Assembly: GCA_000165345.1 (NCBI GenBank)
Contig: CM000433.1
Location: forward strand, 352,001-416,000
DNA length: 64,000 nucleotides
Reading direction: 5' to 3'
Shown here: piece by piece, positions 5,544-7,691 of the stretch
Numbering within the stretch: the first letter of the stretch is position 1
Layout: every line of letters begins with the position of its first letter
Position numbers and translations under genes: made by a program
The notes under the pieces: model-generated
Told to the model about the DNA's origin: nothing
Database searches by the model: none
The model's input: the letters and a program-made list of their open reading frames with translations, nothing else

Positions 5544-7691
5544 ATGAAATTTTTTGTAAGCATAAAACTACTTTTTTGTTATATTTATTTAGTAGCAGCT
5601 ATAAATGGAACCAAAAGAAAGAGAAAGTCTATAGGGCTGGTCTTTCGGAAATCTAGCTACACAGATTCTTTTTGTTCATTATTAGGCTGCAAAGATGGTA
5701 AAGGCTATGCTAGCTCAGGTGATGGCGAATGTTATTCGGTGACTCGTTGTACAAAATGTAAGAAAACTAATGTATCTGAATCATCAATGGCATACTGTTC
5801 AGCGATTCCGACAATCCCAAATGAACTTACACTCTTTCAAGGTTTTCTTAAAACTTCAAAAAGTGGACAAGAGATTTTAAATTCAAGTGTATTTATGGAT
5901 GAAAGTTCAGATATGTCTGAAAATGATGAACAAAAAACAGATGATTCTGAGGGCAGTCAAGACTATGATGATAATGATGATGATGATGATGATGATGATG
6001 ATGATGATGATGATAGTGATAGAGAAAATGCTGCTGGCATAAATAGAGGTTACCCTAGTAAACATATTTCAATGAGCACTTCAAACTTAAATGGCAAATC
6101 AGAATATTCTTTATTAGAACTCGTTTCTCAAATGACAGAATCTGAATCTGAAGAGGAAAATGAGAATCTAAGTAATTTACCTAAATCTAATAAATCACGT
6201 TCAAAAGGTTTATTTGGCAGAATTTTTAGCAAGAAAAAAAAAAATAAACCAGACGAAAATCAGGCAACACAATTTAAAAAAACGAATAGGTTTTCTTTCA
6301 ATTTAAATAGTTTGAAAAATAAGTTTCGTGATAAGAATGGACCTAATAAATTAAATTTATCTTCAAAAGAATTTGATAAAAGTACAGTTAATCAAAAATT
6401 GAAAAGCGCACAAATTTCAAAAGGAACCATTATAGAATGGGAAGCCTCTGGGAGCATACTAAACGAAAGATTAAACAAATGCACAGTAAGTTAAAGGGAA
6501 ATATATTATTTTTATCATACATTAATAGGTTATTGATGGATTTGTACCTCTTACTGTTCACATTTTCTTGCAATATTATAATGTTAAAAATCGTTCAAGA
6601 GTAGGGTTTAAGAAAAATAAGTTTGCGGCATTTCAATTCATGGTTGATTCAAAACTTGATAGTGAAGAGATATGCAGAAAGCCATCTAATTTCATTGGAA
6701 GGCTAACTACCAGACAAAAATTAGTAACGTAAGTATTATTTAGCCACTTTTTGAGGTTTGAACAACTTTTTAGATCCAATTCTATCTCAGTTCCTATTGG
6801 CATATTTAAAAGTAATGGAATATCAGGGGTTATAAGCTCAATTAAGGCAAAGTATATCTGTAAAAGCCCTAAATGCTTCCCAAAGCAATATAATTCTTGT
6901 ATAAAAATAACTTGCGCATTAAATCAGGCAGATCTACATAATCAAAAATGGAGGAAAATTCAAGTAAGTATAAATTACACAAATGTTCAATTAATGTTTT
7001 TCAGAGTGAAAGTATTGAAGAGAGGAAAAGAGAAATTGAAAAGGCTGTTTCAAATGAACTCCAAAATTTTAGGTAAGTTGCTTAGAAGTGAAACTAGATT
7101 TATTGACTTCGTTTAAAGGGAATTTGCTGCGGAAACACAAGGCCCATCAAACAATGAAGAAAATACAGAAGTTCAATCAAATAAAATGAATGGACCATTA
7201 TCTTTTATAGACGATATTCAGCAGCATTCTAATGGAAACACTGCATACCAAATCGAGAATGTCAAAGATTTGGGAGAAAGTGAAGGCGATAAAAAAGAAA
7301 ATTTACATAACCATAAAAATACGAATGAAGCTATTAAAATTCAGACAAAAAAAGAAGAGGAAATAATTGATGCACCATCAGATGAAAAAAGATCCTCAGG
7401 TTTGGTGGAAAGATTAAAACGTTCGCTGGGAGTTTCAGCGGAAGAAGAGGTAAGTCAGTAATTTTAATAATCCCGATTACAATAATTCTGTAGTTAACTT
7501 CAAATAACGTGGAGGAAGGGAATACCGAGGACAATTCACAAGAAGGGGATGAAGATATACCATTTCAACCAGAAATAACGATAAATGACAGAATTGAAAA
7601 TCCACGGAGCAATATGAAGAATATCATATATGTAACTTTGGGAATAACTTGTACAGTCATAATTATAATAGGCGCAATATGCATTATTTAA
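5544..7691 (+). CDS. Six-exon gene: signal-peptide / poly-Asp acidic protein fused to a C-terminal tail-anchor. join(5544..6485, 6529..6728, 6774..6963, 7005..7072, 7119..7449, 7494..7691), about 642 aa
   Basis: Five introns of 43, 45, 41, 46 and 44 nt, each starting GTAAGT and ending AG, keep one frame open and link ORFs 5544, 6751-frame, 7186 and 7509. N-terminus MKFFVSIKLLFCYIYLVAAING looks like a signal peptide; a D-rich tract (DDNDDDDDDDDDDDDDSD) follows; the last exon ends in the TM segment IIYVTLGITCTVIIIIGAICII. The stop of ORF 5544 (TAA at 6492) sits inside the donor GTAAGTTAA. Alternative model: two genes, 5544..6494 and a separate gene starting at ATG 6640. The exon from 6529 is open for 37 codons with no ATG, which favours the fused model. 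Confidence 0.5.
5975..6012. repeat. (GAT)n trinucleotide microsatellite of about 13 units, encoding poly-Asp
   Basis: Sequence gatgataatgatgatgatgatgatgatgatgatgatgatgatgatagtgat lies inside the coding region. Confidence 0.8.

Follow-up and report, generated by a model that had tools for sequence, protein, structure and literature searches.

Comparative support for cgd5_1660 of Cryptosporidium parvum as a single six-exon gene with a predicted genus-restricted membrane protein product

Type I proteins of apicomplexan zoite surfaces and micronemes combine a signal peptide and disulfide-rich modules with a single C-terminal membrane segment, and their transcripts peak at zoite assembly; TRAP-type adhesins use a cytoplasmic tail for motor coupling. 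The p24/TMED cargo receptors consist of a signal peptide, a lumenal GOLD beta-sandwich, a coiled coil and a transmembrane helix, and calsequestrin and the calreticulin C-domain place an acidic cluster in a lumenal protein. Here we compare these systems with cgd5_1660, which lies at positions 5544..7691 of a 64,000-nucleotide (nt) stretch of Cryptosporidium parvum chromosome 5 (GCA_000165345.1, contig CM000433.1, forward-strand positions 352,001 to 416,000; hereafter the window), whose closest protein matches are exclusively to Cryptosporidium. Our comparison of orthologous loci indicates that cgd5_1660 is very probably one six-exon protein-coding gene. Its product resembles the zoite surface and microneme proteins in its predicted signal peptide, disulfide-rich modules, single C-terminal membrane segment and transcript peak at zoite assembly. 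By contrast, the TSR, Apple/PAN, EGF and Sushi domains of those proteins were not found in it by Pfam, and unlike TRAP-type adhesins it has no cytoplasmic tail. Neither a GOLD/EMP24 match nor a short cytoplasmic tail with sorting motifs links it to the p24/TMED receptors. With calreticulin and calsequestrin it shares an acidic cluster, but neither a sequence nor a domain relationship, and it carries no signal for retention in the endoplasmic reticulum (ER).

The model is a re-derivation and not a discovery, as it already stands in public annotation for identical DNA and, across the genus, for orthologues. The window shows 0 differences over 11,379 nt from both CP044418.1, part of the IOWA-ATCC assembly published in 2022 (GCA_015245375.1; PMC12179316), and CP029784.1 (GCA_031892065.1). 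In the CP044418.1 annotation a gene located between CPATCC_002168 and CPATCC_002171 is called at exactly the same span, with a product of 642 residues, and its span minus the coding sequence leaves 219 nt, equal to 43+45+41+46+44, the summed lengths of the five introns described below. On CP029784.1 the same span yields 636 residues; such 636-residue models, in this assembly and in one C. hominis annotation, use an intron 3 acceptor 18 nt downstream and are the only variation between the annotated gene and the model from the window. The legacy identifier is secured by both reverse transcription polymerase chain reaction (RT-PCR) primers published for cgd5_1660 (Mauzy 2012; PMC3305300), which match uniquely and exactly within exon 1, at 5683-5704 on the plus strand and 5808-5829 on the minus strand. 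The surrounding genes match cgd5_1630 (amino-acid transporter), cgd5_1640 (MORN protein Cp-P34), cgd5_1650 (DJ-1) and cgd5_1670, and the DJ-1/PfpI protein encoded upstream has the same sequence as CPATCC_002168 of C. parvum. In the literature that we searched, cgd5_1660 appears in the main text of no paper.

Within the window, six exons yield a spliced coding sequence of 1,929 nt that translates into 642 amino acids (aa) without an internal stop (Table 1). All five introns start with GTAAGT and finish with AG, and all coordinates and sums for the exon chain given in a preliminary description, which was made from the letters of the window and a list of its open reading frames (ORFs), proved correct. 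Five of the 18 plus-strand GTAAGT hexamers of the window cluster within 970 nt (Poisson probability of ~1e-5 to 1e-6 per 970-nt stretch, and <1e-3 when corrected for 66 stretches), a clustering that exceeds chance. From its acceptor, exon 2 is open for 37 codons before the first methionine, and the in-frame stop just 5' of it is the TAG at 6526-6528, which contains the acceptor AG itself. The mechanical ORF list breaks the gene into unspliced fragments (5544..6494, 6568..6732, 6751..7116, 7186..7461 and 7509..7691); the ORF at 6751..7116 reads through intron 3, as had been described, whereas the fragments listed number five and not the four that the description counted.

The single-gene model was compared with the orthologous loci of seven species, onto whose DNA the annotated proteins were threaded back to place the introns. 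The gene order DJ-1, cgd5_1660, a 157-aa gene and a TOG-domain gene is kept in the six intestinal species whose loci extended that far, and the C. andersoni locus shows the upstream DJ-1 only. All introns occur at the positions and in the phases of the window in the annotated orthologues of C. hominis, C. ubiquitum, C. felis and C. andersoni; by our own reading, their positions and phases also match in C. meleagridis, where the GT..AG boundaries align, and in C. ryanae. For intron 1 the agreement in position and phase extends to the C. canis model as well, and its GT..AG boundaries align in both C. meleagridis and C. ryanae. Exon 4 measures 68 nt in all six species compared (C. parvum, C. ubiquitum, C. 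canis, C. felis, C. andersoni and, read manually, C. ryanae), and exon 2 is 200 nt long in four species, against 206 nt in C. andersoni. When the exons are compared with those of C. ubiquitum, C. canis and C. ryanae, third codon positions are almost always the most substituted, the single tie being exon 4 of C. ryanae. This applies equally to the opening of exon 2: the 37 codons that lack an ATG are conserved as protein in six species, with an excess of third-position substitutions in the more diverged ones, which bears out the earlier view of exon 2 as an internal coding exon. In C. canis its first methionine lies near the very end of the exon, so that exon 2 cannot begin an independent gene there.

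Full-length models are on record for C. hominis (both 642 and 636 aa; OLQ16764.1/PPA63846.1 for the 642-aa form), C. ubiquitum (cubi_01852), C. canis, C. felis, C. andersoni (cand_035930) and C. muris; among them are the models of C. muris RN66 (CMU_040180, 673 aa) and C. hominis TU502_2012 (642 aa). The C. meleagridis model, at 607 aa, is N-terminally truncated. Thus the earlier proposal of one gene in place of independent ORFs is upheld by an identical annotated span and product length and by intron positions and phases conserved genus-wide.

Some observations weigh against this model or its details. The identity of the annotated model with that of the window is deduced by arithmetic from span and product length; the exact 642-aa sequence is absent from the protein collection by exact look-up; and protein database searches with the full product and with its C-terminal 356 aa, which exclude the poly-Asp run, returned no transcript-derived spliced product. 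In addition, two annotations of identical C. parvum DNA conflict at the acceptor of intron 3, giving 642 and 636 aa, respectively. The alternative in-frame acceptor (AG at 7021-7022) would produce a 59-nt intron and a 636-aa protein that loses the residues SESIEE. A T-rich tract precedes the upstream acceptor (AG at 7003-7004) in every species aligned, and the six disputed codons are retained in the models of other species; for these two reasons the 642-aa form looks right, although genuine alternative splicing at this acceptor may also occur.

Table 1 Features of cgd5_1660 in the window and intron lengths of its orthologues
Feature	Position in window	Strand	Description
Exon 1	5544..6485	+	314 codons; signal-like N-terminus, TKRKRKS, six-Cys module, acidic and Lys-rich tracts
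(GAT)n trinucleotide microsatellite	5965..6014	+	16.7 copies; encodes the poly-Asp run
Exon 1, 3' part	up to 6485	+	encodes the beginning of the central domain
Intron 1	6486..6528	+	43 nt, GTAAGT..TAG, phase 0
Exon 2	6529..6728	+	200 nt; core of the central domain
Intron 2	6729..6773	+	45 nt, GTAAGT..TAG, phase 2
Exon 3	6774..6963	+	190 nt; holds the four-Cys cluster CKSPKCFPKQYNSCIKITC
Intron 3	6964..7004	+	41 nt, GTAAGT..CAG, phase 0
Exon 4	7005..7072	+	68 nt; part of a predicted helix
Intron 4	7073..7118	+	46 nt, GTAAGT..AAG, phase 2
Exon 5	7119..7449	+	331 nt; low-complexity acidic region, conserved ERLKRSLG motif
Intron 5	7450..7493	+	44 nt, GTAAGT..TAG, phase 0
Exon 6	7494..7691	+	65 codons and stop; ends in a hydrophobic segment of ~22 residues (aa ~621-642)
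C. hominis introns			as C. parvum; the 636-aa model differs at the intron 3 acceptor
C. ubiquitum introns			44/46/42/46/42 nt
C. canis introns			44/44/40/44 nt; intron 5 not spliced
C. felis introns			48/47/45/51/49 nt
C. andersoni (gastric clade) introns			68/64/77/81/79 nt

Five introns in one gene are on the high side for the intron-poor Cryptosporidium genome. Their lengths had been given correctly and called unusually narrow in range, and only the second part of that statement failed, in that the orthologous introns of the other intestinal species are equally short (40-51 nt, with the exception of intron 5 of C. ryanae, which measures 66 nt by manual reading). The narrow range reflects short introns across the intestinal species and is not peculiar to cgd5_1660. 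A heuristic scan of the remaining window returned further GTAAGT..AG candidates, 43-48 nt in length, whose removal would join long ORFs, at 18584-18628, 29884-29926 and 35826-35868 on the plus strand and at 52070-52024, 48346-48308 (or 48299) and 24025-23983 on the minus strand. These are probably introns of neighbouring genes and suggest a usual intron size of 40-50 nt here.

Intron 5 differs in C. canis. In this species (JAPCXC010000051.1; our locus L005, ~4377-4415) its homologue has neither a GT donor nor an AG acceptor, and both annotated proteins continue through it in frame for 13 codons (NNRDDSNNHSKNN); the read-through stretch still resembles the intron 5 of other species, with the motif AATAATC common to both. 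As C. ryanae, C. felis and C. andersoni possess intron 5, it looks like the C. canis intron was turned into coding sequence.

Kyte-Doolittle hydropathy identifies only two strongly hydrophobic segments in the 642-aa product, residues 1-22 (above 1.6) and 618-642, in line with the topology predicted at the outset. The N-terminal segment, which ends ..LVAA|ING and is conserved in full-length orthologue models, looks like a signal peptide and predicts co-translational entry into the ER. The C-terminal segment reaches the last residue, and its sequence is conserved across the genus. Between them lie two conserved blocks, a six-Cys module (aa ~31-100) and a central domain of ~150 aa (aa ~290-445), separated by two tracts, of which the first is acidic (net charge -22 over residues 121-160) and the second Lys-rich. 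The central domain spans exons 1-3 and contains five invariant cysteines, including C313, which is encoded in exon 1; C363 is conserved in all aligned species except C. ryanae. In the AlphaFold2 model both Cys modules and the helix that follows have a predicted local distance difference test (pLDDT) score of 60-80, with values below 50 elsewhere, and strands are placed on both sides of C313.

No Pfam family matched the product at E <= 0.01, and a sequence profile search of the PDB gave nothing below E = 0.03 and no relative with a solved structure. When the central-domain profile was compared with 1.84 billion representative proteins, it recovered Cryptosporidium orthologues only, together with one spurious bacterial repeat protein. 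At this search sensitivity the family is restricted to the genus Cryptosporidium.

A basic motif, NGTKRKRKSxGL (window 5610-5640, aa 20-32), stands directly after the predicted signal cleavage site and is conserved genus-wide, with the variants KRRRASLG in C. felis, KSKRRSQGL in C. ryanae and KSKKSDF in C. andersoni. Dibasic or furin-like processing sites look similar, as do patches for sorting or for glycosaminoglycan binding.

The tail-anchored class is defined by the lack of a signal sequence at the N-terminus, which stays in the cytosol. The preliminary description had applied this term to cgd5_1660, and its single C-terminal membrane segment (aa ~621-642) does fit the class, but the conserved hydrophobic N-terminus (aa 1-22) excludes the product from the tail-anchored (GET/TRC40 client) proteins: given the predicted signal peptide, the term is wrong. 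The prediction is instead a type I membrane protein without a cytoplasmic tail or, as the main alternative, possibly a protein with a glycosylphosphatidylinositol (GPI) signal.

Under the second of these options the gene would be the same, and the mature protein would be GPI-anchored after cleavage of the C-terminal stretch as an attachment signal. We consider this unlikely, even though several features are compatible with it. The product has both a signal-like N-terminal segment and a hydrophobic tail that runs to the last residue, after which there are no cytoplasmic and no basic residues. In addition, a conserved pair of small residues (S or N, then N) occurs 4-5 residues before the tail in full-length orthologues, with N-S at the corresponding position in C. 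ryanae and the triplet S-N-G in C. andersoni. GPI signals usually carry a small residue at omega+2, whereas here most species would have M, I or L there, a poor fit, and the spacer, for which 5-10 polar residues are expected, is very short. Few parts of the C-terminal half of the protein are as well conserved as the tail, in which two glycines are kept (IIYxTLGI..IIIIG), and such conservation is more usual in a helix that is retained than in a signal that is cleaved off. Because of this strong conservation and of the poor omega+2 residues, we favour a retained transmembrane helix over a GPI signal.

A different function was implied by the suggestion that the poly-Asp domain is of calsequestrin or calreticulin type, which would make the product a Ca2+-buffering protein of the lumen of the ER or another organelle, acting through its poly-acidic tract. 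The charge of residues 121-160 and the presence of an acidic tract of some kind in all orthologues agree with this idea, as would the generally plausible low-affinity binding of Ca2+ by acidic tracts. Yet the reading is highly improbable. Pfam gave no calsequestrin, calreticulin or other match at the threshold above; the PDB search returned no relative; the C-terminus is a hydrophobic segment and not of the KDEL/HDEL type; and conservation resides in the Cys modules and not in the acidic tract. Moreover, the Asp homopolymer is the product of a (GAT)16.7 microsatellite. A long homopolymer is confined to C. parvum, C. hominis and C. meleagridis; C. ryanae has a run of seven Asp, and in C. ubiquitum, C. 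canis, C. felis and C. andersoni the tract is shorter and mixes D, E and S. What all orthologues keep at this position is acidic character. On these grounds, the lineage-specific nature of the microsatellite among them, the calsequestrin and calreticulin likeness was rejected.

The last alternative divides the span into two or more genes, one for a secreted poly-Asp protein of 316 aa, with its stop a little way into intron 1, and an independent one downstream that would encode the C-terminal half. Such splits exist in public records, as the preliminary description had suspected: C. hominis TU502 and UdeA01 carry 316 aa (XP_666628.1/CUV06153.1) plus 90 aa (XP_666627.1), C. hominis GY17 carries 316 plus 304 aa, C. 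tyzzeri carries CTYZ_00003330 (314 aa) plus CTYZ_00003331 (297 aa), and C. ryanae carries FG386_000861 (432 aa) plus a separate 161-aa gene. Baptista 2022 also cautions that read-through in RNA sequencing (RNA-seq) may falsely fuse neighbouring genes of the same strand. Nevertheless, the two-gene reading is so improbable as to be ruled out for practical purposes, given that the putative genes would stand just 43 nt apart at a locus with true intergenic gaps of 164 and 236 nt, that the start of exon 2 is conserved as protein and offers C. canis no usable methionine, that the donor, acceptor and phase of intron 1 are kept out to C. andersoni and that the central domain is encoded across the boundaries of exons 1, 2 and 3.

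The C. ryanae split has an explanation of its own. Its locus (VHLK02000058.1; our locus L007, 3501-5612) contains all six homologous exons, each in the frame expected, down to the part that encodes the hydrophobic C-terminal tail, and its intron 4 (L007 4971-5016, 46 nt) is a GC-AG intron with the donor GCAAGT, which gene predictors probably missed, breaking the prediction. With the single six-exon gene as the reference, comparative analysis offers simple corrections for the wrong records of C. hominis TU502 and UdeA01, C. tyzzeri and C. ryanae. A sequence-only reading recovered a model that curated annotation reached only after an RNA-seq-based revision.

The downstream 157-aa gene cgd5_1670 (CPATCC_002171; window 7928-8401) has no Pfam family on record and is conserved to a very high degree. 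Its proteins from C. parvum, C. canis, C. felis, C. ryanae, C. bovis and C. xiaoi fall into one 90%-identity cluster, whereas cgd5_1660 is 39-50% identical between the distant species compared. In expression the two genes agree, both in the spike at 12 h and in the asexual and in-vivo pattern. The TOG-domain gene (XMAP215/CLASP-like; window 8592-12731) is listed mechanically as an ORF of 1,379 aa from a TTG; public annotation starts it at window position 8652 and gives 1,359 aa, a gap that is an effect of the ORF-listing rule only.

In a published RT-PCR time course the cgd5_1660 transcript is essentially zero at 2 and 6 h, spikes at 12 h (at 3.9e-5 to 2.2e-4, normalised to 18S) and is ~10-fold lower thereafter, with a small rise at 36 h (PMC3305300 supplement). 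According to Mauzy et al., 12 h corresponds to immature meronts, in which components of the apical complex, the inner membrane complex and the surface are made (PMC3305300). In RNA-seq of sorted stages, log2 counts per million were highest in in-vivo sorted cells (6.83), followed by asexual stages (5.18), and lowest in females in vitro (1.93), and known secreted gene families show the same pattern in that data set (Tandel 2019; PMC6877471 supplement 4).

Together, these features allow a mechanism to be sketched. Five very short introns are very probably removed from the transcript of the single six-exon gene, which would be switched on while zoites are being built, and the 642-aa product would be taken into the ER by its N-terminal signal peptide and held in the membrane by the hydrophobic helix at its extreme C-terminus, in type I orientation and with no cytoplasmic tail. 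Its ectodomain would consist of two disulfide-bonded modules, the N-terminal six-Cys module and the central domain of ~150 aa, a predicted beta-sandwich, connected by a disordered linker that is first acidic and then basic; a helix and a second disordered acidic region would follow the central domain.

The transcript appears to be switched on when zoites are built, and for this reason we propose a zoite-stage secretory or surface role. The likeliest assignment, which we make tentatively, is a genus-specific merozoite or sporozoite membrane glycoprotein of the surface or of a secretory organelle, for example a component of binding or adhesion. Two points count against it: no localisation or proteomic evidence for it turned up, with cgd5_1660 absent from the searchable supplements of an extracellular-vesicle proteome and of two secretory-protein papers, and the functional argument draws on bulk expression timing and on structure models of moderate confidence.

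The significance of the locus is small beyond quality control of annotation, as cgd5_1660 is one of many genus-specific candidates for zoite-stage secretory membrane proteins in Cryptosporidium. A more specific idea, possible but doubtful, is that the two Cys modules of this putative zoite surface or secretory-organelle membrane protein form a ligand-binding ectodomain unseen outside Cryptosporidium. If that were true, cgd5_1660 would be a candidate invasion or attachment factor, or a candidate antigen.

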